This document shows, piece after piece, positions 1,545-64,000 of a stretch of 64,000 bases of DNA (its first letter is position 1; every line of letters begins with the position of its first letter). The stretch comes from a virus (taxonomy: Duplodnaviria; Caudoviricetes). The DNA lies in IMG/VR virus record IMGVR_UViG_3300031867_000027, positions 28,752 to 92,751 of that record; one strand, written 5' to 3'. Under the pieces are notes generated by a model, which made no database searches, was not told where the DNA came from, and saw nothing but the letters and a program-made list of their open reading frames with translations. The position numbers and the translations under genes were made by a program.

Positions 1545-2135
1545 ATGCGTAAACAGATTCAAGATCAATCCGTGTCATACAGCAAGGGAAATAACAATGA
1601 GTGTTATACTCCGGCCTATGGTGTCCTCCCTATAATCAAGTATCTTCCGAAGGATAAGATAATATGGTGTCCGTTCGATTTAGAGAATAGTCAGTATGTT
1701 ATCCAGCTCAGAAAAGCCGGGTATGATGTTGTATTCTCTCATATTCACTCCGGTCAGGATTTCTTTTATTATGAACCGGATAGGTGGGATGTAATGGTAA
1801 GCAACCCACCATATGAAGGAAAACGTCAGATATTTGAACGAGCTTTAAGCTTTAATAAGCCATTTGCTTTGCTTATGATGAATACTTGGCTTAATGATGC
1901 CGCTCCGAAACAATTGTTTATGGACAAGCAGTTGCAACTTCTGATGTTCGATAAACGTATCAAGTTTATGAATAATGGTGTACTTAGCAACAAGATTACA
2001 TTTTCCAGTAGTTACTATTGTTATAACCTGCTCCCAAGGGATTTGATTATAGAGAGACTTGTTGAACCTAATTTCAATTATATTGATACAATGTCAGAGT
2101 TCTCAGGTTTGCCAAAATCAAAGAAACTGTTTTAA
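1545..2135 (+). CDS. N6-adenine DNA methyltransferase-like
   Basis: ECYTP, IWCPFD, SNPPY; ends KSKKLF. Confidence 0.8.
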   Translation: MRKQIQDQSVSYSKGNNNECYTPAYGVLPIIKYLPKDKIIWCPFDLENSQYVIQLRKAGYDVVFSHIHSGQDFFYYEPDRWDVMVSNPPYEGKRQIFERALSFNKPFALLMMNTWLNDAAPKQLFMDKQLQLLMFDKRIKFMNNGVLSNKITFSSSYYCYNLLPRDLIIERLVEPNFNYIDTMSEFSGLPKSKKLF

Positions 2136-2151
2136 TCAGAGAGGTATATGT

Positions 2152-2496
2152 ATGGGTTCTATATCCTTATTTGCTATCCCAAAAAGCAAAGATGATTCTT
2201 CTAAAACCGAAGATTCTAAGATTGCAGAGCTGATAAAGCGTAGGCGTAGACAGATTTTAGTTCATAGCTTTATTTACTATGAGCTGAATCAGAACATCAT
2301 CTCTGATGCTCAGTGGTCTGCTTGGGCTCAGGAGTTAGAGGAACTACAGTCTAAGTATCCGGATATATCAGATAACACAGAGTTCGCATCCGATTTCAAA
2401 GATTTTGACCATAGTACAGGAGCTAATCTCCGGGATGCATATAATAAGCCTAACATCGTCACCTTGGCATTTCGATTACTGCATTATAAGGAGTGA
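2152..2496 (+). CDS. stand-alone NAD-ligase domain Ia-like protein
   Basis: ILVHSFIYYELNQNIISDAQW..ELEELQSKYP resembles LigA N-terminal YY..D.P.ISD.EYD.L..EL..LE..P; RBS GAGAGGT. Confidence 0.65.
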   Translation: MGSISLFAIPKSKDDSSKTEDSKIAELIKRRRRQILVHSFIYYELNQNIISDAQWSAWAQELEELQSKYPDISDNTEFASDFKDFDHSTGANLRDAYNKPNIVTLAFRLLHYKE

Positions 2497-2502
2497 TATA
2501 TA

Positions 2503-2703
2503 ATGAAGTGTATTCATTGTAAGTACAGAAGGACTCTATATGCAACTGTAGATCTACAGTGCTATTGCAGTCATAGCCCGTTACAGAAGAAGATAAAAGC
2601 TGAGATCATAGGTGATTTGACAGCACCAGACTGGTGTCCGTTGAAAAATACCGAACTATCGGAGAATGCAGATGCTGACACTGAACAGAATATACAATAT
2701 TGA
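2503..2703 (+). CDS. small Cys-rich protein
   Basis: CxxC...C...PDWCPL; AGGAGTGA RBS. Confidence 0.6.
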   Translation: MKCIHCKYRRTLYATVDLQCYCSHSPLQKKIKAEIIGDLTAPDWCPLKNTELSENADADTEQNIQY

Positions 2704-3451
2704 TTGCCTTGAAGGTATGAATCTGATAGATGATAAGTCAATTGATATGATATTTGTTGATTTACCATATCAGAAAACTCACAATTCTTGGGATGTAATG
2801 ATTCCCTTTGAACCAATGTGGGAACAGTTTGAGCGTATTATCAAAGACAATGGAGCGATTCTACTCTTTGGTCAGGATAAGTTTACTGCAAAGCTGATGC
2901 TCTCTAATGAGAAGATACATAGATATAACATCATTTGGGATAAGGTCTTACCCAGCGGTCATCTGAATGCCAAAGTAATGCCTTTAAGATCCCACGAAGA
3001 TATATGTGTATTCTATAAGAACCCCGGCACGTATAACCCTCAGATGCGATTAGGTGATATGTGTCATACAAGAGGTAAAGCCGTAGGTCAAATGGCAAGT
3101 GATGTATCTCAACAGAAGAATTATGGTGACTACGAAATCGTCGAAACCGATGGTAAGTGGAAATACCCTACATCTATATGGACTTTTCAAAAACCACATC
3201 CTTCTACCGCTCTGCATCCTACACAAAAGCCGATTGACCTTTGCCGTTATGCTATCCGCACATACACCAATGAGGGTGATACGGTCCTTGATTGCTGTTG
3301 CGGCAGCGGATCCATTCCATTAGCCGCAAAGCTTGAACGCAGAAATTATATCGGTATGGATAATGGTTTTTCTGAAAAAGAAAACAGACCGTGGGCTGAT
3401 ATAGCTACAGAGCGTATAGCTCAATATAAAGTGAGTAGGAGATTATTCTAA
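2666..3451 (+). CDS. N4C/N6A DNA methyltransferase (beta class)
   Basis: DLPY, HPTQKP, VLDCCCGSGS; ends SRRLF. Confidence 0.9.
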   Translation: MQMLTLNRIYNIDCLEGMNLIDDKSIDMIFVDLPYQKTHNSWDVMIPFEPMWEQFERIIKDNGAILLFGQDKFTAKLMLSNEKIHRYNIIWDKVLPSGHLNAKVMPLRSHEDICVFYKNPGTYNPQMRLGDMCHTRGKAVGQMASDVSQQKNYGDYEIVETDGKWKYPTSIWTFQKPHPSTALHPTQKPIDLCRYAIRTYTNEGDTVLDCCCGSGSIPLAAKLERRNYIGMDNGFSEKENRPWADIATERIAQYKVSRRLF

Positions 3452-4194
3452 TGAGTGAAGTTAAACTATATCAAGGTGACTGTTTAGAGCTAATGAAACA
3501 GATACCAGATAAGAGCGTAGATATGATACTCTGTGATTTGCCGTATGGCACAACAGCTTGTAATTGGGATGTGATAATTCCGTTTGAATCTTTATGGAGC
3601 GAATATAATCGTATTATAAAAGATAATGGGGCAATTGCGCTTTTTGGGAATGAGCCTTTTACAAGTAAGTTGATTGTCAGTAATTTAAAGGGGTTTAAAT
3701 ATCGTTGGGATTGGAATAAAAAAATTCCGTCAGGAATGGGATATGCAAAATATAGACCTATGCAACAGACAGAGGATATATGTATATTCTCAAAAAATGG
3801 TTCAAAAACAAGATATTATCCACAAATGATAAAAAGAGATGAACCAATAAAAAGTGGTGGAAACACAATTCAGACAGGTGTATATTCAGGCTTTAAGTGT
3901 ATGGGAGAAGGAAAAGAATACAAAAAGACATATGATTACAAATTCCCTGTAACGCTTATTGAGTTTGACAAAATACGGCGTGGAGCTATTCACCCTACTC
4001 AAAAGCCAGTTCCTTTGCTTGAATATTTAATCAAAACCTATACAAATGAAGGTGATACCATCCTTGATAATTGCATGGGTAGTGGCAGTACAGGTGTTGC
4101 AGCCAAAAATCTCAATCGAGACTTCATTGGCATAGAGTTAGACGAAAACTACTTTGAAATTGCAAAATCACGAATTTTAGGTAACGTAGAATAG
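3451..4194 (+). CDS. N4C/N6A DNA methyltransferase (beta class)
   Basis: GDCLE, DLPY, HPTQKP, LDNCMGSGSTG. Confidence 0.9.
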   Translation: MSEVKLYQGDCLELMKQIPDKSVDMILCDLPYGTTACNWDVIIPFESLWSEYNRIIKDNGAIALFGNEPFTSKLIVSNLKGFKYRWDWNKKIPSGMGYAKYRPMQQTEDICIFSKNGSKTRYYPQMIKRDEPIKSGGNTIQTGVYSGFKCMGEGKEYKKTYDYKFPVTLIEFDKIRRGAIHPTQKPVPLLEYLIKTYTNEGDTILDNCMGSGSTGVAAKNLNRDFIGIELDENYFEIAKSRILGNVE

Positions 4195-4251
4195 GCAAAA
4201 AGTGGCTCTATTTTTACGATGAAATTCTGCTTTTATTGAAAGGAAGATATA

Positions 4252-5049
4252 ATGAGTAATATACAGTTAATATAGGGCGACTGCCTTGAACATCTCAAAG
4301 ACCTGCCCGACAATAGCGTAGACTTAATTCTTTGTGATCTCCCATATAAGGAAACTGGCAATAAATGGGATAAATCGTTTGATTTAGAAGGGGTGTGTCG
4401 TGAGTTTGAACGTCTAATTAAAGAAGATGGTTGCATTGCCCTTACTGGTACGTTTAGGTTTGGAGTGCAGTTATTCAATCTTATGCCTCATCTCTATAAG
4501 TATGACTGGGTATGGGAGAAAGATAACGGCACAAACGCCCCTAACGTAAATCTTCAGCCATTTAGAATACATGAATTTGTATTTATCTTTGGCAAGGGCA
4601 GAGTGACAAATGGCACAAGAACACCTATGAAGTATTTTCCTCAAAAGACAGACGCTACTCCATATTGTCAAAAGTCGGGCAGAATGAGTGACAACTGGAA
4701 GGGCGGTTTAGGCACTGTTGTAACAAACAATAAGGACGGCAAGCGTCACCCTAAGACAATACAGAAGTTCACAAGAGACAAAGGTGGATTCCACCCTACA
4801 CAAAAACCTGTAGCTTTACTTGAATACCTTATCAAAACATATACAAGAGAGGGGGACTTAGTTCTGGATTGTGTTATGGGTAGTGGTTCAACTGGCGTAG
4901 CAGCGAAGAACCTCAACAGAGATTTTATAGGTATAGAGCTTGATGAAGAATACTTCAAGATAGCTAAGGACCGTATCGAACATCAGCAGAGATTTCCTGA
5001 TATGCCTTATAAGAAACCACAGGAATCTAAGAGTAAGAGATTATTCTAA
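4252..5049 (+). pseudogene. N4C/N6A DNA methyltransferase with in-frame TAG at codon 8
   Basis: RBS GAAAGGAAG then MSNIQLI*GDCLEHLKDLPDNSVDLILCDLPY, in frame with ORF 4393..5049; TAG at 4273-4275; ends KSKRLF. Confidence 0.8.
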
Positions 5050-5062
5050 AGGAGATTTAATA

Positions 5063-5656
5063 ATGGCAAAGGATTGGAAAGGAAACAGCACATCCGTATA
5101 TGCTAACTTAGCAGCAAGTAATCATTCTGAGGAAGATAGAGCAGATAAAGATTACTATGCAACTCCACCATCTGCCGTGGAAGAACTGCTTAGAAGAGAG
5201 TCATTTAACCACTACATATTAGAACCAGCTGTAGGGGGAGGTCATATTGCTGATGTACTGAAGGCTCACGGTTATCAGGTACAGACTATGGATATAGTTG
5301 ATAGAGGGTATCCCGGCACTGAGGTCAAAGACTTCTTTACAGCCAATAAGAATGATTTGAAATGTTCACCGGACATTATAAGTAATCCTCCGTATGCTCT
5401 TGCATCTGACTTTATAGAACATTGCCTCGATATATCTATGGACACTGTAAAGGTTGCAATGCTTCTTAAGATACAGTTCCTTGAAACACAAAAACGATAC
5501 ATTTTGTTCCGAAAACATCTCCCAAAGAAGATATATGTCTTTGTAAATCGGGTGAACTGTGGTAAAAATGGTGTGTTTAGTGGTGAGTCATCAGCCGTAT
5601 GCTATGCTTGGTTTGTATGGGAGAAAGGGTATCAGGGTCTACCGGAGATTGATTGA
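5063..5656 (+). CDS. N6-adenine DNA methyltransferase; frame continues past TGA to 5695
   Basis: DYYATP, ILEPAVGGG, SNPPY, YAWFVWEKG; after the TGA reads IANDEPKSKRLF-stop. Confidence 0.85.
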   Translation: MAKDWKGNSTSVYANLAASNHSEEDRADKDYYATPPSAVEELLRRESFNHYILEPAVGGGHIADVLKAHGYQVQTMDIVDRGYPGTEVKDFFTANKNDLKCSPDIISNPPYALASDFIEHCLDISMDTVKVAMLLKIQFLETQKRYILFRKHLPKKIYVFVNRVNCGKNGVFSGESSAVCYAWFVWEKGYQGLPEID

Positions 5657-5705
5657 ATAGCGAATGATGAACCAAAATCAAAGAGATTATTCTAATATAT
5701 AAAGA

Positions 5706-5731
5706 AAAGCACCTCAATCCGAGGTGCTTTC
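5706..5731. terminator. bidirectional terminator between convergent genes
   Basis: AAAGCACCTC-AATCC-GAGGTGCTTT. Confidence 0.65.
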
Positions 5732-6148
5732 TGATTCATTGTCAATATTCATTTGAGTCTGCACAGCTCTCTGCACAAATTGATTCAGACTTTCATTGTG
5801 CTTTGCAGCGTGATCCGCTATGGTTTGCTTGTAGCCTTTGGGAAAGTTGAGTTCAAAGCGATCATAGGCTTTTTGTCTCCACTTGGCCTTAGCTCTGCCC
5901 TCAGCCTTTGTGTACTTATACGGTTGAGCAGTTTTGCCAGCCGCAGCGCATTCCGGACAATACTTCTGTTTACTTGCAGAAACAACATATTCCTTACCAC
6001 AGATGATACATTTATCGGTACTACCTATGGTCCTGCTTGTCTCAACCCCTGATGCTATCTGCTTTTCAATTCTGCACTCTGGGCAATACTCCGTAGTATC
6101 ATTACCTTGGAATGTAGCTCCACAGTTTTTGCATATACGTTCTTTCAT
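5714..6148 (-). CDS. double zinc-ribbon plus ribbon-helix-helix (Arc/HicB-like) regulator
   Basis: Two CxxCG...YCPEC units; C-terminal YDRFELNFPKG..IADHAAKHNESLNQFVQRAV. Confidence 0.7.
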   Translation of the reverse strand: MKERICKNCGATFQGNDTTEYCPECRIEKQIASGVETSRTIGSTDKCIICGKEYVVSASKQKYCPECAAAGKTAQPYKYTKAEGRAKAKWRQKAYDRFELNFPKGYKQTIADHAAKHNESLNQFVQRAVQTQMNIDNESESTSD

Positions 6149-55980: not shown

Positions 55981-56586
55981 GTGCTGTACCTCTACGATTC
56001 GGCAATTGTTGAAGATTTAACGAAATCATTCAACCCTACAGAAGATGGAGCAAAGCCTGTGGTTAGGGTTGTGGGGCCGGAGAAGATAGTAGATTTAGCC
56101 GCTCAGATACAAGAAGATAGAATATCTTTCCCGATTATCGCTATCACAAGGAATGATTATCAGATAGATGAGCAGCGAATGAATTTCTCACGAGCCCATT
56201 TCGGTGTGGCTACTGTCTTTGATAATAAGACCAACAACCTTTACTATGAGAAAGCTTTACCTATTAAGCTCTCATATAACCTTACTCTGCTTACCACAAA
56301 TCAGGCAGATATGGATGAACTTGTAAGAGAAACACTGTTTAAGTATTTGCAGATGTACTATCTTACCATTAAACTACCATATGAAGCCGATAGAAAAATA
56401 AGGTTCGGCATATCCGTGGATGAGCGTACAGAGATTCAACGTTCTTCCGGTAGTTTGGAATATATAGAATCCGGTCAACTGTATCAATCTATTATCACAT
56501 TAAACTGTGAGGGCTGTGTTCTTGTAACTTACACACCAGCTCATCTGATGCGATACGCTACATCAACTGATATAGGTGTAGAGTGA
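55981..56586 (+). CDS. putative tail terminator/sheath stabilizer (gp15-like)
   Basis: ISFPIIAITR...PIKLSYNLTL....ADMDEL. Confidence 0.55.
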   Translation: MLYLYDSAIVEDLTKSFNPTEDGAKPVVRVVGPEKIVDLAAQIQEDRISFPIIAITRNDYQIDEQRMNFSRAHFGVATVFDNKTNNLYYEKALPIKLSYNLTLLTTNQADMDELVRETLFKYLQMYYLTIKLPYEADRKIRFGISVDERTEIQRSSGSLEYIESGQLYQSIITLNCEGCVLVTYTPAHLMRYATSTDIGVE

Positions 56587-56657
56587 TAACCTTATATAAT
56601 ATATGTAAATCAAAATCATATTAAGATAAGTGATTTTAGGTCAGAGGTGATTATTAA

Positions 56658-56924
56658 ATGATTTATAAAAATACATCAGGTGCAATAAGGAAATTCTATG
56701 GAGTAGAATTCAAACCCGGAGAAGTGAAGTCTGTTCCGGGGTATATCAATGCACACAATATGATCAGAGTACAAAGTATGCCTGAAACTGTCAGTGATGT
56801 ACCGAGTAATACTACGGTTGATAAGGTCGATACTCCGGAGGAACCCGTGGTAAAAACCGGAAACCGCAGAAAATCCAAGAATATATTAAAGGAGGATATT
56901 ACAGATGGCACAGATAATAATTAA
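56658..56924 (+). CDS. small late protein
   Basis: After AACCTTATATA motif; GAGGTGA RBS. Confidence 0.65.
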   Translation: MIYKNTSGAIRKFYGVEFKPGEVKSVPGYINAHNMIRVQSMPETVSDVPSNTTVDKVDTPEEPVVKTGNRRKSKNILKEDITDGTDNN

Positions 56925-58782
56925 TGAAATCTCAGACAACTATACCTTTAATACAGGTACAGGTGCCTTTGCCACAGTAGCTTTGCCTATCACAGCAGCG
57001 TGGGGTCCGGCGTACATTGATCCGGCAACTCTCGATGAGGGTACAACTGTTGCAGATGTACTTGAAGATACTGATTGGTTCAGATTCCCGGCAACTCAGC
57101 AGGGTCTTGAATCATTTGTATCTACATTCAGAGGTCCTTCCTCAAACTACAAGGTAGCTAATGATTATTCATATCAGATAGCTATGACTCTGCTTACCGC
57201 AGGCTATGATGTGCTGGTATGCCGTGTATGCCCCGGTACTAACGCAAGTGGTAGCATTACATTCGGTACAGGTAAGTCTCTTGACCTGACCGCTAAGTAT
57301 CCCGGTTCATTCGGAAACAACATTAAGGTCAGCATTAATAAGCTCACTTATAGGGTTGGTGCTGAAACATACTCATACTTCAATCTTATAGTATATGTAT
57401 CACCCGATGGAGTAGGCCTTACAGCTGTTGAGAATCTTAGCTTCACGTTCGGATACAACGAAGCTGATATTCCTATGCTTGATGAACTGACTTCTGATTT
57501 CCTTACATTTACAAATCACGGTGTAGCAGATACTGATACTCCCGATCCTACACCTACCGATACTACAGCACTCTCCGGTGGTTCTGATGAGATCTCAGCT
57601 GAACTGACTACAACCGCAGCAGAGTATGCTCAGGCACGTTATGGCGGTACATATGCTGTAGATGATAACGGTTATATCAACGGAGCAGGTTATTCTACTC
57701 CGGCATCAATAGCATATGTTTCAGCATTGGCTAATACCACAATTACGGATGCTACAAAGCTCAAGGCTATTAAGCAGATGGAGTGGTGCTACAATGCAGC
57801 ATTTAATGTATACCAACTCCTGAAGGATAAGTTGAACTACAATCCTAATAGAATCATCTGTCCTTGGGATGACCAGAATATCTTAGCTATCGCTCCCGAT
57901 ACAACAATCACAGCAAGTACATTTGTTGTATCTCCGCTCCAAAAGATCATTATGGATGTAGCATTCTTCAGCAGATGTGCTACTGGTATGCTTGACCTTC
58001 CTAAGTCGCTCCCAAGAAGCTTTGTATATAATACAAATGCTACTTCCCTTGGCTATGTACAGCAGCTGTCAGAGGTCACGGTCGCTCAGGGAGAGTATTC
58101 TAACAATATTCCGCTCTTCAATACAAATAGTGGTATCTACGGTCCGTGGGCTCCCTACCGACTGGTAGGTATGCAGAAGATGGTTTCTGTTCCTCCCTCA
58201 TTCATCGCTCTGCTCATTCATAGAGCTCAGGTTCTTAATCAGGCAGAACAGTATGAGTGGATTCTTCCTAAGAACAGAAAGCATAATCTTAAAATCGGTG
58301 AACCTGATTACTCCGTATCTACTAAGCTCCTCAACATCTGGCAGAAGCTTGATGGTGTCGGTGTAAACGTTATCACTAAGATCCCTGACCTCGGTACTAA
58401 CGTATGGGGTAACTCAACACTCTTTGATGTTCCTCCGGCTACATATCAGGCTCTTGCTAATATGTCTACAAGATGGATTGTAAATGCTGTCGAAGATGTA
58501 GTATATCGCTGTGGTATCGCTATAACCTTCCAGTACAATAACGAGCAGGCTTATGGCAAGTTCTATGCAGGAGTATCACCTATACTTGATACAATGGTAA
58601 CTGTCGGAGCAATCGAAGATTACAAGATTAAGATGTCCGCAGATGTAAACGGTTTGGATCAGGTGAACGCCAATACTGTGATTGGTAAGATTTGGCTTGT
58701 TGTGAATGGTGTTGTCAATGATATTGTTGTTGACCTCATTGCACTTCCGCAGGGTACGAGTCTGGCTGCTTTCGGTGAGTAA
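56905..58782 (+). CDS. contractile tail sheath protein
   Basis: WGP, AKYPGSFGN.IKV, LSGGSD, YGPW..VPPS, VNVI..VWGNSTL. Confidence 0.88.
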   Translation: MAQIIINEISDNYTFNTGTGAFATVALPITAAWGPAYIDPATLDEGTTVADVLEDTDWFRFPATQQGLESFVSTFRGPSSNYKVANDYSYQIAMTLLTAGYDVLVCRVCPGTNASGSITFGTGKSLDLTAKYPGSFGNNIKVSINKLTYRVGAETYSYFNLIVYVSPDGVGLTAVENLSFTFGYNEADIPMLDELTSDFLTFTNHGVADTDTPDPTPTDTTALSGGSDEISAELTTTAAEYAQARYGGTYAVDDNGYINGAGYSTPASIAYVSALANTTITDATKLKAIKQMEWCYNAAFNVYQLLKDKLNYNPNRIICPWDDQNILAIAPDTTITASTFVVSPLQKIIMDVAFFSRCATGMLDLPKSLPRSFVYNTNATSLGYVQQLSEVTVAQGEYSNNIPLFNTNSGIYGPWAPYRLVGMQKMVSVPPSFIALLIHRAQVLNQAEQYEWILPKNRKHNLKIGEPDYSVSTKLLNIWQKLDGVGVNVITKIPDLGTNVWGNSTLFDVPPATYQALANMSTRWIVNAVEDVVYRCGIAITFQYNNEQAYGKFYAGVSPILDTMVTVGAIEDYKIKMSADVNGLDQVNANTVIGKIWLVVNGVVNDIVVDLIALPQGTSLAAFGE

Positions 58783-58796
58783 TTACATTACATGTA

Positions 58797-58832
58797 AAGA
58801 ATCGGAGAGTATTATGCTCTCCGATTCTTTTT
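58797..58832 (+). terminator. terminator after sheath gene
   Basis: AAGAATCGGAGAG-TATTATG-CTCTCCGATTCTT then T run. Confidence 0.75.
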
Positions 58833-58842
58833 ATTGCAACAC

Positions 58843-58871
58843 TTGACATATATGCATACATATGGTATACT
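58843..58871 (+). promoter_or_regulatory. sigmaA-type promoter for tnpA-nuclease pair
   Basis: TTGACA-17-TATACT. Confidence 0.7.
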
Positions 58872-58884
58872 AAATATGTAGGGG

Positions 58885-59295
58885 GTGTGCCTAAATATGG
58901 GGGAATTCTCAATTACATATGGTCGGGGTTATGCATATTCATTACAGTATCATATAGTGTGGGGTGTATCAATGAACGTACCTCTACTTATGGGGGATAT
59001 AGCTATTGCGGTGAAACAGAATATATTAGATTCTTTGAAATCCTTGGATATTACAGTTATTGATTTAGAAGTTGCACCAACATATATACATTTGTTTGTA
59101 AACTGCAAACCTCAGATTCGATTATCTGATGTAGTGAAAGTATTGAAAGGTAACTCAGCCCGAAAACTATTTATGTTGAATAAACGTATTAAACATACGT
59201 ATGGCATTTCACACTTATGGACTAACTCTTATTTAGTGATTAGTCATAGTGATACCTATAAATCAATCATTGCTGACTATTTGCATCAGTTATAA
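58885..59295 (+). CDS. tnpA: IS200/IS605 TnpA-like Y1 transposase, HUH motif altered
   Basis: GRGYAYSLQYHIVW, TYIHL (normally DHxH), VKVLKGNSAR.LF, HLWTNSY, YLHQ. Confidence 0.8.
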   Translation: MCLNMGEFSITYGRGYAYSLQYHIVWGVSMNVPLLMGDIAIAVKQNILDSLKSLDITVIDLEVAPTYIHLFVNCKPQIRLSDVVKVLKGNSARKLFMLNKRIKHTYGISHLWTNSYLVISHSDTYKSIIADYLHQL

Positions 59296-59311
59296 GCGAG
59301 GAGGGTGTGTT

Positions 59312-61402
59312 ATGGAGAAACGGATTTGTGTTCTATGTGGGGATGAATTTGAACCTAAATCCTCAAGAAGAACTATGTGCTATAAAGACCATTATCATGC
59401 TTGTCCTGTCTGTGGTAAGCCCGTATTAACTGATAGTCTACGGCATATTAATACTTGTTGTTCCAAGGAGTGTAGCTTAAAATCGGCACAACAAAATGCT
59501 TCACGGTATTGGCAGACACATCCGGAAGCGTTGTCGGCTAAACAGGCAAAGATTGAACAGACAAATTTAGAACGTTACGGTAGTAAGAATCCTATGGGGG
59601 ATCTGACTATACGTGAGCGACAGCATAATAATTTGAAGAAAGTTATGTCTGAAAATGCAGAAGAGATTCAGCGCAAGCGACAATCTACCAACTTAGAACG
59701 ATATGGTGTTATACATCCTATGCAGTCAGAAGGTGTAAAATCTAAGGTTGAAGCAACGTGTATGCGTTTATATGGTGAGAAGTCCACTTTACATCTGCCT
59801 GAAGTAGAGGCTAAGACCAAAGCCACATTGCTTAGTAAATATGGTGTGGATAACCCGGCTAAATCTAAGGTTGTTAGGAATAAAATGACAAATACCTGTG
59901 TTGATCGATATGGTGTACCGTATCCAAGTACAATGTGTCCGGAAATAAAATTTAAGGTTAAAACTACAATGATGGAACGCTATGGTGTTGAACACCCGAT
60001 GCAATCTTCTGATATACTACAACGAGCTTTGGATCATCGGCAAGAAACAATGTCCAATCCTATAAAACGTGAAGATATACTAAGTAGGACAAAAGCTTCA
60101 CAGGAGAAACTATACGGTGGGTGGGGAATGGCATCTCCAATACTTGCGGATAAAGCGTGTAAAACTATGGAACGCTTATACGGTGCTAAATATTATACTA
60201 TGTCTGATGTGGGTAAGAAAAAGGTCGCAGAATCAAATATAGCTAAGTTTGGTGTAGCTGTATCTACTAAAAATGCGGCTGTTAGAGCAAAACTCAAACA
60301 GACTTTGCTTTCTAAGCAATCACCACAGATGCAATCTTTTAAGAAAGATCCCATATCATTTATTCAGGAATTGCCTGAGTATAAGCGAACAGAACCAATG
60401 CTTGCATCTATATTGGGTGTGACACCATCAACAATATCAGTGTTTGTATGCAGAAACAACTTACAAGGATATTTAGTTAATACGTATTCTTCTATGGAAA
60501 ATACGGTATGTTCTTGGTTGGATGATTGGGGAATTAAATATATTCGTTGTTCTAAATCTGTAATTCCCCCATTAGAGTTAGATATATATATCCCATCGCA
60601 TAACATAGCTATTGAGTGTAATCCTACGGCAACCCATAATTCATCATTTAAGACACCTTGGGGTGCAGAACCCAAATCCTATATGTATCACAAGAATAAA
60701 TCTATTGCCTGTAGAGACATTGGCATATTCTTGTTTCACATATTTGGGTATGAGATGAATGCTCGGCCTGATGTGATTAAGTCTATGCTGAGAAATGCCT
60801 TGGGCTGTACTGAATCAAAGATTTATGGTCGAGATACCTATGTAGTAGAATTATCAGCAGAAGAATCTATGCGGTTTTTGAATGAGCATCATAGACAAGG
60901 TGGTACTAATGCGAGCATTCGACTCGGACTGAAACATAAGATGACGAACAAGTTAGTTGCAGTAATGACTTTCAATAAAGTACGTAGTACAATCGGTGAA
61001 TCTGATGATGAAGGTGAGATTCTTGAACTCTCACGTTTCTGTAATCAAATCAATACTACCGTAGTAGGGGCCGCAAGCAAGCTGTTTAAGTATTTCAAGC
61101 AGCATTACTCTTTTGATAAAGTTATTTCTTTTTCAGATATAGCACACACAAAAGGTGACTTGTATTCTGTTTTAGGTTTCCGACAAGTTAATGAGTCTAA
61201 GCCAAGTTATGTTTGGGTCAGTTTGAAAGGGGCATCATATTTCAATCGTGTAAATTGTCAGAAGAAGAACCTACCTAATTTGTTTTCAGATGTTACTCAG
61301 GAAACAATTAAGAATCATACTGAAAAGGAAATTATGATGAATCACGGATTCGCTCAGGTGTTTGATTCAGGTACGATTCGTTGGGAGTACACCAATTCCT
61401 AA
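59312..61402 (+). CDS. Hef-like endonuclease: zinc ribbons, nine T..ERYG repeats, PD-(D/E)XK domain, Mom/GNAT-like C-terminus
   Basis: ELDIYIPSHNIAIECN; ELSRFC..VVGAASKL..SFSD..G.LY..LGF; GAGGAGG RBS. Confidence 0.75.
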   Translation: MEKRICVLCGDEFEPKSSRRTMCYKDHYHACPVCGKPVLTDSLRHINTCCSKECSLKSAQQNASRYWQTHPEALSAKQAKIEQTNLERYGSKNPMGDLTIRERQHNNLKKVMSENAEEIQRKRQSTNLERYGVIHPMQSEGVKSKVEATCMRLYGEKSTLHLPEVEAKTKATLLSKYGVDNPAKSKVVRNKMTNTCVDRYGVPYPSTMCPEIKFKVKTTMMERYGVEHPMQSSDILQRALDHRQETMSNPIKREDILSRTKASQEKLYGGWGMASPILADKACKTMERLYGAKYYTMSDVGKKKVAESNIAKFGVAVSTKNAAVRAKLKQTLLSKQSPQMQSFKKDPISFIQELPEYKRTEPMLASILGVTPSTISVFVCRNNLQGYLVNTYSSMENTVCSWLDDWGIKYIRCSKSVIPPLELDIYIPSHNIAIECNPTATHNSSFKTPWGAEPKSYMYHKNKSIACRDIGIFLFHIFGYEMNARPDVIKSMLRNALGCTESKIYGRDTYVVELSAEESMRFLNEHHRQGGTNASIRLGLKHKMTNKLVAVMTFNKVRSTIGESDDEGEILELSRFCNQINTTVVGAASKLFKYFKQHYSFDKVISFSDIAHTKGDLYSVLGFRQVNESKPSYVWVSLKGASYFNRVNCQKKNLPNLFSDVTQETIKNHTEKEIMMNHGFAQVFDSGTIRWEYTNS

Positions 61403-61417
61403 TTCATATACTACTAC

Positions 61418-61462
61418 AGATCACCCTCTATCGGTAATAATCGGTGGAGGGTGATTTGTTTT
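61418..61462 (+). terminator. stem-loop after nuclease gene
   Basis: ATCACCCTCTATCGG...TCGGTGGAGGGTGAT then T run. Confidence 0.65.
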
Positions 61463-61511
61463 TATTATCAGGAAAAGTTTGAACTGAGTAATCGTTATAG
61501 TAAGTAAGGGA

Positions 61512-62243
61512 GTGAATTGTATGGCGATATCGAATGAGAAAGTAAGAGCAAGGTATGAGAAGTATATAGGCAAGACATTTGGTGAGTGGGAAGTTATCGG
61601 TGTAACAGATGAGTTCTATGTAATCGGTCAAGAGAGACGAAGAAAACTCTTATGTAGATGTAGCTGTAAAGCGCATACTGTGAGAGCAGTTAGAGCTGAC
61701 CATGTTATACACGGGATATCTACATCCTGCGGTTGTGTGAAGTCGAAAGTTCGTAGGGAGAATATAAAAGAAGTAAAACCTGATCAGTATAGGCGTAATA
61801 TTATCACACCTACGTTGTGGTATGAGGACAAGGAAGAATATGTCATAGGTCATACACCAAGCGGTTACATATTCTATATAGATAAGTGCGACTATCCCAT
61901 AATTAGCCAATATGTTTGGGGTATACATCCGTATCACGGCTTAGGATTGATAAGAACAAAGGGTGAGCCAATATCAATGATACAACTCTTAATGCATATT
62001 CACAAATTTTACAAGGTGAAGTACAAGAACGGCAATAAGCTTGATTATCGTATGGAGAATTTAGATATTACTCCTATGCCGAAAGGTGTCTACTTCAATA
62101 AAAATCATAACAAGTGGCACGTAAGACTTACTATAGACGGTAAGAGGAAAACCATAGGTTATTATTCAGTAGCGAAAGATGCTGTAAGAGCATTGGAGCA
62201 GGCTAAACAAGAGTATAGGGGGCAAAATTATGATACTACCTGA
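61512..62243 (+). CDS. HNH-AP2 endonuclease-like protein, HNH degenerate
   Basis: CRCSC...STSCGC; KYKNGNKLDYRMENL; AP2 KGVYFNK..KW.V.L.IDGK...IGYY. Confidence 0.7.
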   Translation: MNCMAISNEKVRARYEKYIGKTFGEWEVIGVTDEFYVIGQERRRKLLCRCSCKAHTVRAVRADHVIHGISTSCGCVKSKVRRENIKEVKPDQYRRNIITPTLWYEDKEEYVIGHTPSGYIFYIDKCDYPIISQYVWGIHPYHGLGLIRTKGEPISMIQLLMHIHKFYKVKYKNGNKLDYRMENLDITPMPKGVYFNKNHNKWHVRLTIDGKRKTIGYYSVAKDAVRALEQAKQEYRGQNYDTT

Positions 62244-62919
62244 GATTTATAATGTACATGATGAGATATTACCGTTAATGCCGTTTAAGATACAAGGTTC
62301 AAATGGTGTGCATATAGACCAAATACCCTATAGTGTCAGTGGTATAGATTTCTATGGTTGTGATGAGGAGATAAGTTGTTTTGCTGATACGTACCATTAT
62401 GTGTATGATAAATACGAGCATGGTCAGCTTATAAAGCAGGAATTACAGTGTAATGACTACGGCAAATATGAATACTATTTCTCCGCAGGTGCATTGGCTA
62501 TTTTGTGTTCTATTTATGATATGAATATTCCTACCGAGGAAGCTGTGACAGCATATACACGGTTATACCCTGAGTGCATTCATAAATTTTATAATTTTAT
62601 GCTGAAGCATAAACCGGATAGCGGCATAAAGTTGTCTATTGACGGTGTAGATTTTCAGATGCAGTTAGTATTTCAGTGGGAGAACTCGGTTGAACCGTAT
62701 ACGTGTGTAGGCAGCGACTGTAGATTGTATGTACCATCGAGTGAAACTTTCAAGTGCATAAATACCTCAGTAGTTCTATGGGAGCAGGCTACACCTACTA
62801 AGAATCAGGAGTGTATGCTTTGTATGAATCCAATATATAACACTCGCAGATACGCCGTTATGCTCTTAGGTGAATTATATGAAATGGCTGAGAATAAGAG
62901 TAAAAAGGGGAGGAATTAA
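62230..62919 (+). CDS. hypothetical protein
   Basis: 229-aa ORF. Confidence 0.65.
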   Translation: MILPEIYNVHDEILPLMPFKIQGSNGVHIDQIPYSVSGIDFYGCDEEISCFADTYHYVYDKYEHGQLIKQELQCNDYGKYEYYFSAGALAILCSIYDMNIPTEEAVTAYTRLYPECIHKFYNFMLKHKPDSGIKLSIDGVDFQMQLVFQWENSVEPYTCVGSDCRLYVPSSETFKCINTSVVLWEQATPTKNQECMLCMNPIYNTRRYAVMLLGELYEMAENKSKKGRN

Positions 62920-62921
62920 TT

Positions 62922-63269
62922 ATGGGTCACGCAAATATACAGCATCCTGAAACCGGGATGTGGAGATGTTGGTCTACTGTCGTAGATAATTGGATAACTG
63001 ATTGGATGACAGAATCTGATTACAAGGAATGGATAATACAGGAAGCCGCCAATAGTATGCGTGAGGAATTATTGCACTTTGGTATAAAGACATCCCGATA
63101 TATCACATATAATGATTGCATATATAGTGTTGCTTTTCAGAGTATGTGTGAACAGTGTCCGGATAGGTTTGAAAGATGTGATGAATGTGATAAGAATATC
63201 ACTGTGGAAGCTTATATCAAACAAGGGGATGACTATTTGAATTTAGGATTTGCTGAAATGGGGGTGTAA
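62922..63269 (+). CDS. hypothetical protein
   Basis: GGAGG RBS; WSTVVD motif, Cys cluster. Confidence 0.7.
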   Translation: MGHANIQHPETGMWRCWSTVVDNWITDWMTESDYKEWIIQEAANSMREELLHFGIKTSRYITYNDCIYSVAFQSMCEQCPDRFERCDECDKNITVEAYIKQGDDYLNLGFAEMGV

Positions 63270-63378
63270 TCCTGAGAACTAAAAGCACAACTGTAAAAAT
63301 GTAGGGATAAGCAATCGTTATTATATTTAGGAAGAGTAATATCTTTCCTACATATTATTTTCAGGAGGAGAATTCATA

Positions 63379-63717
63379 ATGAGAGAATTAAATCAGATTT
63401 TATCAGACATCAATGCCGAAGCTGAGAAGTTATCTGCTCTGTATAAAGAGCTGGCGTTAGCAAAAGGTATACCTGTTGGTACAGTAGATACGGTTCCTTA
63501 TGGTGGTGCTATAGTATTTACAGTAAACTCCGATTCGATGTCGTTTGATGATGAATTAATGCGTGATATGTGTGTTAAGCTTGATTCATATGGTATATTT
63601 GCGGTATTCTGCAATAGTACAGATGTGAAGTATAGTATCTATCACACAATGCAGGAGTATGGCAAAGCTCTTGATGATGCGGTGGCTGAACTTAGAGGAG
63701 AGGAGCAGGACATATGA
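63379..63717 (+). CDS. hypothetical protein
   Basis: AGGAGG RBS; promoter motif at 63312. Confidence 0.7.
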   Translation: MRELNQILSDINAEAEKLSALYKELALAKGIPVGTVDTVPYGGAIVFTVNSDSMSFDDELMRDMCVKLDSYGIFAVFCNSTDVKYSIYHTMQEYGKALDDAVAELRGEEQDI

Positions 63718-64000
63718 TATTATGTTTTGAGTTGACAATGCCTAACCGGGGATCGTGGAATGGTCGGTGGTCTGGTGAAGATGATAAGCATTATATCATC
63801 AGAGCCTATCGCACAAAGGCTGAGATTGAGAAATATTCCTATCTTGACGGTAAGGACTTCTGGCACCGTTGGAATGATGGTTGGACAGCTTGTATATCCT
63901 GCTCAATCATAGATTCAAAAGAAGCAGCAAAGCGTAGGAAACAGAGTAAAGGTTTCTGTGGGTATGATTGGATGGTGCAGAGCATTCTTTCCGGCAATAT
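63714..64000 (+). CDS. conserved phage hypothetical protein, truncated by window end
   Basis: MILCFELTMPNRGSWNGRWSGED...WNDGWTACI. Confidence 0.7.
   Translation, partial: MILCFELTMPNRGSWNGRWSGEDDKHYIIRAYRTKAEIEKYSYLDGKDFWHRWNDGWTACISCSIIDSKEAAKRRKQSKGFCGYDWMVQSILSGN

Follow-up and report, generated by a model that had tools for sequence, protein, structure and literature searches.

A probably domesticated IS200/IS605 TnpA-like protein heads a homing-endonuclease cassette behind the tail sheath gene of a large myovirus

The DNA analysed here (hereafter the window) is the last 64 kb of IMG/VR virus record IMGVR_UViG_3300031867_000027, which is 92.7 kb long and estimated to be 64% complete. Directly behind its tail sheath gene lies a cassette of two genes, the first encoding a small protein that resembles the TnpA transposases of IS200/IS605 insertion sequences (IS) and the second a large endonuclease. 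The evidence favours, with fair though not full confidence, a resident homing-endonuclease cassette of the Hef/EDxHD type in which an IS200/IS605 tnpA gene has been fixed as the first cistron in one sub-lineage and has been domesticated. That gene would have settled between the cassette promoter and the endonuclease gene; its product would no longer transpose anything and would most likely act as a nucleic-acid binder that regulates or assists the cassette.

Genes for a T4-type portal, a gp15-like protein and a tail sheath are present in the window; therefore, the genome is that of a large myovirus of the T4-portal type. The relatives of this phage, and the nearest canonical TnpA homologues, come from gut metagenomes or gut Firmicutes. 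A Megablast search of the region against GenBank phages gave no match. The sheath is 98%, 87% and 72% identical to those of relatives. The cassette and its flank are laid out as follows.

56905-58782, plus strand: tail sheath gene, 625 amino acids, conserved and flanking the cassette upstream (tail sheath by phrog_279 and phrog_23; weak match to Pfam Phage_sheath_domII)
58796-58836, plus strand: terminator hairpin of the sheath gene with T-run (RNA fold; perfect stem, 3-7 nt loop)
58843-58871, plus strand: cassette promoter of sigma-A/sigma-70 type (TTGACA, 17 nt, TATACT, TG extension)
58897-59295, plus strand: TnpA-like gene, 132 amino acids (Pfam Y1_Tnp, PF01797, E 8.6e-23)
59312-61402, plus strand: free-standing homing endonuclease gene, 696 amino acids (DUF7487, E 9.6e-37; phrog_3339 'homing endonuclease', E 5e-110)
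60488-60808, plus strand: nuclease domain of the endonuclease, residues 393-499 (I-Bth0305I-like by structure match)
60827-61399, plus strand: C-terminal GNAT-fold domain of the endonuclease, residues 506-696 (best Foldseek match phage Mu Mom)
61416-61465, plus strand: cassette terminator, hairpin 61416-61459 and T-run (20-bp stem with G-U pairs)

An initial annotation, made from the sequence alone, had described a two-gene unit with its own sigma-A promoter immediately 3′ of the sheath gene, and every part of that description was recovered. The promoter matches the consensus at 11 of 12 positions in addition to the upstream TG, is the best promoter-like site in 56000-64000 and is conserved in the relatives L004, L005 and L007. 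A ribosome-binding site, AGGGGGTG, lies upstream of the TnpA-like open reading frame (ORF), and the endonuclease ORF starts 16 nt past the TnpA-like stop codon with a GGAGGG site ahead of its start. A tail tube gene had been noted as often following the sheath gene. However, behind the sheath gene the relatives have a hypervariable run of small genes, among which no tube gene was identified.

The small protein has the fold of a Y1 transposase. It matches PHROG transposase families as well as Pfam Y1_Tnp, and a profile of the protein and its homologues matches the solved ISDra2, IS608 and IS200 transposases in a PDB profile search. Its AlphaFold model (predicted local distance difference test, pLDDT, 94.2) finds ISDra2 TnpA as its best PDB matches, 2xma and 2fyx, with a TM score of 0.89 and a root-mean-square deviation (rmsd) of 1.6 Å to 2fyx. 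The active site is altered. In the alignment, T-Y-I-H (Y63-I-H65) stands in place of the canonical D-H-[VI]-H, the first His of the HUH motif being replaced by Tyr, and V-S-M-N-V stands in place of T-K-Y-R-K, the K-Y-R patch being lost; both changes had been read correctly in the initial annotation. The T-Y-[VI]-H form is fixed in 6/6 proteins of the subfamily, whereas relatives have D-H-[VI]-H. It had also been thought that the helix carrying the catalytic Tyr and Gln was kept, which holds for the Tyr (Y128 on the C-terminal helix, invariant in the alignment) but not for the Gln, which is Q131 at Tyr+3 (Y-L-H-Q, the protein then ending at L132) rather than at Tyr+4 as in the canonical Y-I-x-x-Q. 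The two HUH His residues and, in the Y---Q layout of class 1, the Gln at Tyr+4 are the Mg ligands, and this Gln is essential in vivo (PMC6006769). Therefore, one metal ligand is replaced and another shifted by one residue in the TnpA-like protein, with the Tyr nucleophile retained.

The substitution is not confined to this subfamily. Y-x-H instead of HUH was seen in ~14 other TnpA-like cluster representatives, some with KYR intact; P0153, P0162, P0187, P0194, P0203, P0229 and P0272 are among the representatives with Y-x-H. The recurrent change of the first His to Tyr may point to a broader group of Y1 proteins that have been altered or re-purposed. The neighbours of two of them, P0162 and P0153, are small unknown genes, with no endonuclease and no TnpB among them.

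Five further TnpA-like proteins of 132 amino acids, 58-94% identical, carry every substituted motif. The same order of sheath gene, TnpA-like gene and a DUF7487 gene of 695-696 amino acids was found at L004, L005/L006, L007/L008 and L011, and the pair is present in three diverged metagenomic phage lineages, always at the post-sheath site. A full HMMER scan, covering 1.84 billion cluster representatives, places the subfamily in a single 50% cluster, the next match being at 5e-32, and scans of metagenome and genome contigs for more members returned canonical TnpAs only. Single-sequence scans of IMG/VR with the sheath or the TnpA-like protein gave no match, and a sheath alignment search of IMG/VR gave two distant loci and nothing else.

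Between the window and L005, synonymous divergence (dS) is ~1.05 for the TnpA-like gene, ~1.18 for the endonuclease gene and ~0.89 for the 3′ half of the sheath gene. The matching values indicate that the pair is as old as the split of these phages. The ratio of non-synonymous to synonymous divergence (dN/dS) is 0.15-0.27 for the TnpA-like gene, 0.09-0.16 for the endonuclease and 0.09-0.13 for the sheath, and both cassette genes are under purifying selection. All six distinct TnpA-like sequences are exactly 132 amino acids long, with no stop or frameshift, and the 61 invariant columns of their alignment include the positions of the substituted motifs. On sequence grounds, a function at the level of the protein is favoured by purifying selection, the constant length and the 61 invariant positions. 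A domesticated TnpA was one of two possibilities raised in the initial annotation, and it is the one that agrees with a full-length protein in every lineage, a low dN/dS and the fixation of the substituted motifs.

These same comparisons bear on whether the gene does anything at all. It could be a hitch-hiker without function, a piece of an IS caught in the endonuclease operon that is carried along for its promoter and upstream position. It is the fastest evolving of the three genes, at 58-64% identity compared with 80-87% for both neighbours, it has lost catalytic residues and has no IS ends, and relatives have an endonuclease that works without it (see below). However, a dN/dS of 0.15-0.27, albeit at saturated dS, and six unbroken reading frames whose invariant columns extend to the substituted motifs are not what a passenger without function would be expected to keep, and we consider this explanation improbable.

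Features of a mobile element were searched for around the TnpA-like gene. With positive controls, no TnpB (PF07282) was found in the 92.7-kb record, which is ~64% complete, and the record contains no second TnpA-like copy. No different insertion site was seen among relatives, since every TnpA-like gene occupies the post-sheath site. The closest canonical relative, L001 (48% identity), lies on a phage contig of human faecal origin and is an ordinary tnpA-tnpB element, with imperfect hairpins at both ends that share TTTAGTCGTG. Matching end hairpins of this kind were not found flanking the TnpA-like gene, and the 16-nt gap between its stop codon and the endonuclease start leaves no space for an IS right end.

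Two hairpins do bracket the unit, as first annotated, and RNA folding recovers both, although each has the appearance of an ordinary intrinsic terminator. The upstream hairpin (58796-58830; -23.6 kcal/mol, z -7.65) begins 14 nt past the sheath stop codon, the downstream one reaches -31.3 kcal/mol (z -7.8), and each is followed by a T-run. They are unlike each other, and neither is an imperfect end hairpin of the IS200/IS605 type. The core stem of the upstream hairpin, ATCGGAGAG/CTCTCCGAT (9 bp), is invariant in the window, L004, L005, L007 and L008, whilst its loop and flanks vary; the stem pattern occurs once in the window. By contrast, the sequence of the downstream hairpin is not conserved in L004 or L005, where a wobble-paired hairpin is nevertheless kept in each, and it differs even between the window and L004, a 94-97% relative, with pairing preserved. 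Rfam gave sub-threshold matches only on this region, the one over the downstream terminator (psRNA14, 36 bits against a gathering threshold of 60) being taken as chance. A remnant of an IS left end was considered for the upstream hairpin and rejected as its main reading, as the hairpin is perfect, T-tailed and unlike the canonical end hairpin; the distance of 14 nt from the sheath stop codon also opposes it, as does CGGAGAGTA, which is common to this hairpin and to the post-sheath hairpin of L015, a relative without a TnpA-like gene.

The promoter might still have an IS origin. Canonical relatives carry CATATGGTATA(A/C)T immediately before tnpA, which resembles the -10 block of the cassette promoter, and it was considered that the promoter may have been brought in with the IS. 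However, the CATATGGTATA block is mostly the extended -10 consensus of the Firmicutes type, and the 11-mer also occurs twice inside genes of the window, which weakens the suggestion.

It is against this background that the other proposal of the initial annotation, a composite mobile element driven by a different nuclease, has to be weighed. Here the Y-x-H TnpA-like protein would move the hairpin-bounded unit, with a protein-guided endonuclease in the restoring or driving role of TnpB. The intact fold with Tyr128 kept on its helix, the two strong hairpins around the unit and the recurrence of Y-x-H variants in nature are what such an element might look like. However, all instances share one locus and their dS matches that of the flanks, including the sheath; a single copy, and no TnpB, was found in the record. 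The protein lacks one of the metal-binding His residues. The hairpins are mutually unlike, perfect, T-tailed and strand-specific (through their G-U pairs), unlike the closest canonical IS ends, and the endonuclease is found at the same site without a TnpA-like gene, so that the hairpins are not the boundaries of the unit. Moreover, a protein-guided endonuclease is held to be unfit for restorative homing unless insertion is site-restricted, and its pairing with TnpA has been argued to be nearly impossible as a transposon strategy (2026 review, PMC13565253). The locus fits that argument because the TnpA paired here is stranded and catalytically degenerate. An active element is thus very improbable, and transposition by the TnpA-like protein is disfavoured because a metal ligand, the IS ends and mobility have been lost.

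The usual partners of IS200/IS605 TnpA are the RNA-guided nucleases TnpB or IscB. In the cassette, no TnpB domain was found in the partner by Pfam (PF07282, RuvC plus Zn-ribbon, and PF01385), in keeping with the earlier remark that it has no RuvC motifs. The protein instead consists of a Cys-rich N-terminus (Zn ribbon), DUF7487 repeats (127.5 bits against a cut-off of 27, in three stretches), a Vsr-like nuclease of EDxHD type and a Mom-like GNAT C-terminus. More than 3,900 homologues were found by a word-based search, and 414 GenBank phage records match it, many of them annotated as homing endonuclease; the matches so annotated include Campylobacter, Dickeya (F-Lim), Salmonella and jumbo-phage genes. 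A PDB sequence search with the whole endonuclease gave no match. Residues 340-696 were compared through a structural model (pLDDT 89). For the nuclease domain, superposition on I-Bth0305I (3r3p_A, catalytic domain) gives a VIA-align Z of 13.0 and an rmsd of 2.1 Å over 94/97 residues at 22% identity (Foldseek TMt 0.81). Within this domain, E422, D424, E435 and N443 are invariant and H442 near-invariant. Hef-type phage enzymes have been placed in the Vsr-like EDxHD family of which I-Bth0305I is the prototype (Taylor 2011, PMC3239194), and the term Hef-like, as first applied to this gene, is right in that phage sense. The gene thus encodes a probable free-standing homing endonuclease of the Hef/EDxHD type. 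Its homing-type traits, namely that it is free-standing, has its own promoter and terminator and is present in some relatives and absent from others, are indirect as to cleavage and homing.

The GNAT domain (Foldseek match to Mom, 8bv8, E 9.4e-7) aligns over 160 residues with Mom at a VIA-align Z of 13.6, and reaches Z 13-14 against many GNATs. The C-terminal GNAT fold is conserved in the DUF7487 endonuclease family, with E572, R575, G586, A588 and S589 among the invariant residues. A role in DNA modification or self-protection is conceivable for this domain, and a literature search found no paper connecting a Mom-like domain with homing endonucleases.

Relatives without a TnpA-like gene show that the cassette can be assembled differently. 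In L015 (endonuclease 43% identical) the terminator hairpin of the sheath gene is followed directly by the endonuclease gene with nothing between, and in L014 (59%) a terminator and a consensus promoter lie ahead of the endonuclease gene. In L013, L016, L017 and the P0029 contig (59-61%) the terminator and consensus promoter are followed by a 75-amino-acid ORF and then the endonuclease gene. This ORF matches phrog_582 'Arc-like repressor' (E 2e-7 and 1e-6) and, weakly, Pfam Arc/ribbon-helix-helix (RHH) families, and an inverted repeat overlaps the -35 of the promoter before it. Elsewhere, L039 has two DUF7487 endonuclease genes in tandem after the sheath gene (1876-6136), whereas L009, with a sheath 52% identical, has no endonuclease there. 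As endonucleases stand directly behind the sheath gene in relatives without a TnpA-like gene, the two genes of the cassette are not one unit. Recurrent pairing of tnpA with a Hef-like gene had been set as a test in the initial annotation; the pairing is indeed not unique to the window, but the genes are separable and their recurrence is vertical. In a maximum-likelihood tree of the endonucleases, those associated with the TnpA-like gene and those associated with the Arc-like gene form separate clades, each with support of 100/100, with L014 as sister to the TnpA-associated clade and L015 and L039 outside. The gathering of all TnpA-associated endonucleases in one clade points to a single acquisition of the TnpA-like gene. 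The simplest history is that the endonuclease is an old resident of a hot spot, that the slot between promoter and endonuclease start is exchangeable and that the TnpA-like gene entered it once.

What might the TnpA-like protein do in this slot? The HUH fold of the IS200/IS605 TnpA family binds DNA hairpins, and a TnpA-like protein that is conserved yet degenerate points to exaptation of this hairpin-binding fold. The sequence-invariant hairpin just upstream would be a possible binding site; its stem leans towards a binding role because compensatory changes would be tolerated in a terminator, as they are in the downstream one. Taken together, the invariant stem and the Arc-like repressor in the same slot of the sister clade favour a regulatory or accessory nucleic-acid-binding role, which we propose by analogy and with moderate confidence. 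In IS605 elements, the promoters of nucleases and transposases are repressed by Arc proteins (bioRxiv 10.64898/2026.09.24.754181), and by the same token the TnpA-like protein may control the strong promoter or the expression of the endonuclease. The endonuclease, in turn, would cut cassette-free relatives during co-infection, and so spread and maintain the cassette by intronless homing.

Instead of regulating transcription, the protein might be a helper or subunit of the endonuclease, its dimer binding or nicking a single-stranded DNA hairpin and thereby aiding homing, self-marking or repair bias. The tight linkage and co-inheritance of the genes (16-nt gap), the retained nucleophilic Tyr and the invariant stem of the cassette-adjoining hairpin would suit such a partner. 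However, the endonuclease family is overwhelmingly solitary and close relatives function at the same site without a TnpA-like protein, which makes this rather unlikely. A joint fold of the endonuclease and the TnpA-like protein gave no verdict (score 0.00), which has no bearing on binding either way. More broadly, it is possible, if doubtful, that the Y1-HUH derivative is a dedicated part of the homing-endonuclease cassette, reading a nearby DNA or RNA hairpin for regulation, homing or self-protection.

Several points weigh against a domesticated, transposition-inactive regulator within a resident endonuclease cassette. Its inactivity is read from one His-to-Tyr change and a shifted Gln, and the existence of other Y-x-H variants, some with KYR intact, suggests that Y-x-H might retain some chemistry. 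As the record is ~64% complete, a TnpB gene or a second copy could lie in the missing part. The regulator idea draws on the analogy with the Arc slot and on a 9-bp stem invariant in three independent lineages, and that stem may simply be the sheath terminator.

The post-sheath region is a hot spot in which both homing endonucleases and elements of the IS605 family turn up. Immediately past the cassette, at 61491-62243, is another homing-endonuclease-like gene, unrelated to the first (~240 amino acids from the ATG at 61521), with Pfam AP2 and weak HNH_3 matches and with matches to PHROG HNH endonuclease families as strong as 4.5e-16. L004 has this gene (94%), but L005, L011, L014 and L015 do not have it behind the endonuclease gene. 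On the P0029 contig, a TnpB gene (OrfB_IS605 plus Cas12f1-like_TNB, 365 amino acids) is found ~1.4 kb downstream of the endonuclease gene. Between the HNH/AP2 gene and a conserved 112-amino-acid gene (63379-63717), the window carries ORFs of 229 and 115 amino acids with no PHROG match (62230-63269), whereas the same interval of L004 (11432-12171) carries unrelated ORFs of 186 and 60 amino acids, though L004 is otherwise 94-99% identical. The difference resembles a gene-cassette swap within this hypervariable stretch behind the sheath gene. The sheath itself also varies: relative to the window, L007 (1173-3308) and L011 (3339-5474) have an insertion of ~86 residues in the central, surface-exposed part, with the C-terminal 240 residues 84-87% identical.

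The motif ATCGTTATAGTA precedes the HNH/AP2 gene. The pattern ATCGTTAT[AT][AG]TA occurs eight times on the plus strand of the window (8771, 16825, 23630, 23684, 29792, 35013, 61491 and 63314), and both strands together give 9 matches, where chance would give 1.26. Its core, AATCGTTAT, also occurs in L005, L009, L010, L014 and L015, where it stands behind the sheath gene or ahead of small genes. From its sequence and placement, ATCGTTAT[AT][AG]TA is probably a phage-specific (late?) promoter, unlike the sigma-A promoter of the cassette.

A literature search found no description of a TnpA-like protein arranged with a homing endonuclease in this way. If the Y1-HUH protein is a dedicated component, the cassette would be a two-protein homing module without a described counterpart; if it is a domesticated TnpA, it would be a phage example in a slot filled by an Arc-like repressor in sister phages. 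The scope is narrow, so far one small clade of uncultured gut phages.

Compared with TnpA of IS200/IS605 elements (ISDra2, IS608), the TnpA-like protein shares the fold, length class and Pfam Y1_Tnp family (TM 0.8-0.9 to 2xma/2fyx), the Tyr on the C-terminal helix and the core motifs GRGY, CKPQ, KGNSAR and HLW. It differs in having Tyr for the first HUH His, no K-Y-R and the Gln at Tyr+3, and in being single-copy at one locus, without end hairpins or TnpB, and predicted to be co-transcribed with a protein-guided endonuclease. The endonuclease resembles the free-standing Hef/EDxHD phage enzymes (T-even Hef, Campylobacter, Dickeya) in its I-Bth0305I-like nuclease domain and in lying free between conserved phage genes in a hot spot, with its own promoter and terminator and with presence/absence among relatives. 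However, it has DUF7487 repeats and a Mom-like GNAT domain, and is the second cistron behind a TnpA-like gene. In RAYT/TnpA-REP proteins and IStrons (a group I intron plus IS605 genes), as here, another genetic system has taken over a protein or gene of the IS200/IS605 type, and in IStrons a homing-type element is likewise joined to IS605 parts. RAYTs, however, keep HUH and act on repetitive extragenic palindromic (REP) hairpins in bacterial chromosomes, whereas the TnpA-like protein is found in phages with no ends and a degenerate metal site; IStrons, which have no protein-guided endonuclease, retain both TnpB and the IS ends. A parallel in arrangement is seen with Arc-like RHH repressors of mobile nuclease cassettes (the Arc of IS605, bioRxiv 10.64898/2026.09.24.754181; the C proteins of restriction-modification systems), in which a small protein likewise lies upstream of a potentially toxic nuclease behind a shared strong promoter; in the sister clade of the cassette, this very slot is taken by an Arc-like gene. 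The fold of the TnpA-like protein, however, is Y1-HUH rather than RHH, and repression here is putative. At one and the same site, this endonuclease is found behind a TnpA-like gene, behind an Arc-like gene or with its upstream slot empty, a natural comparison that could reveal how phage homing endonucleases are kept in check.

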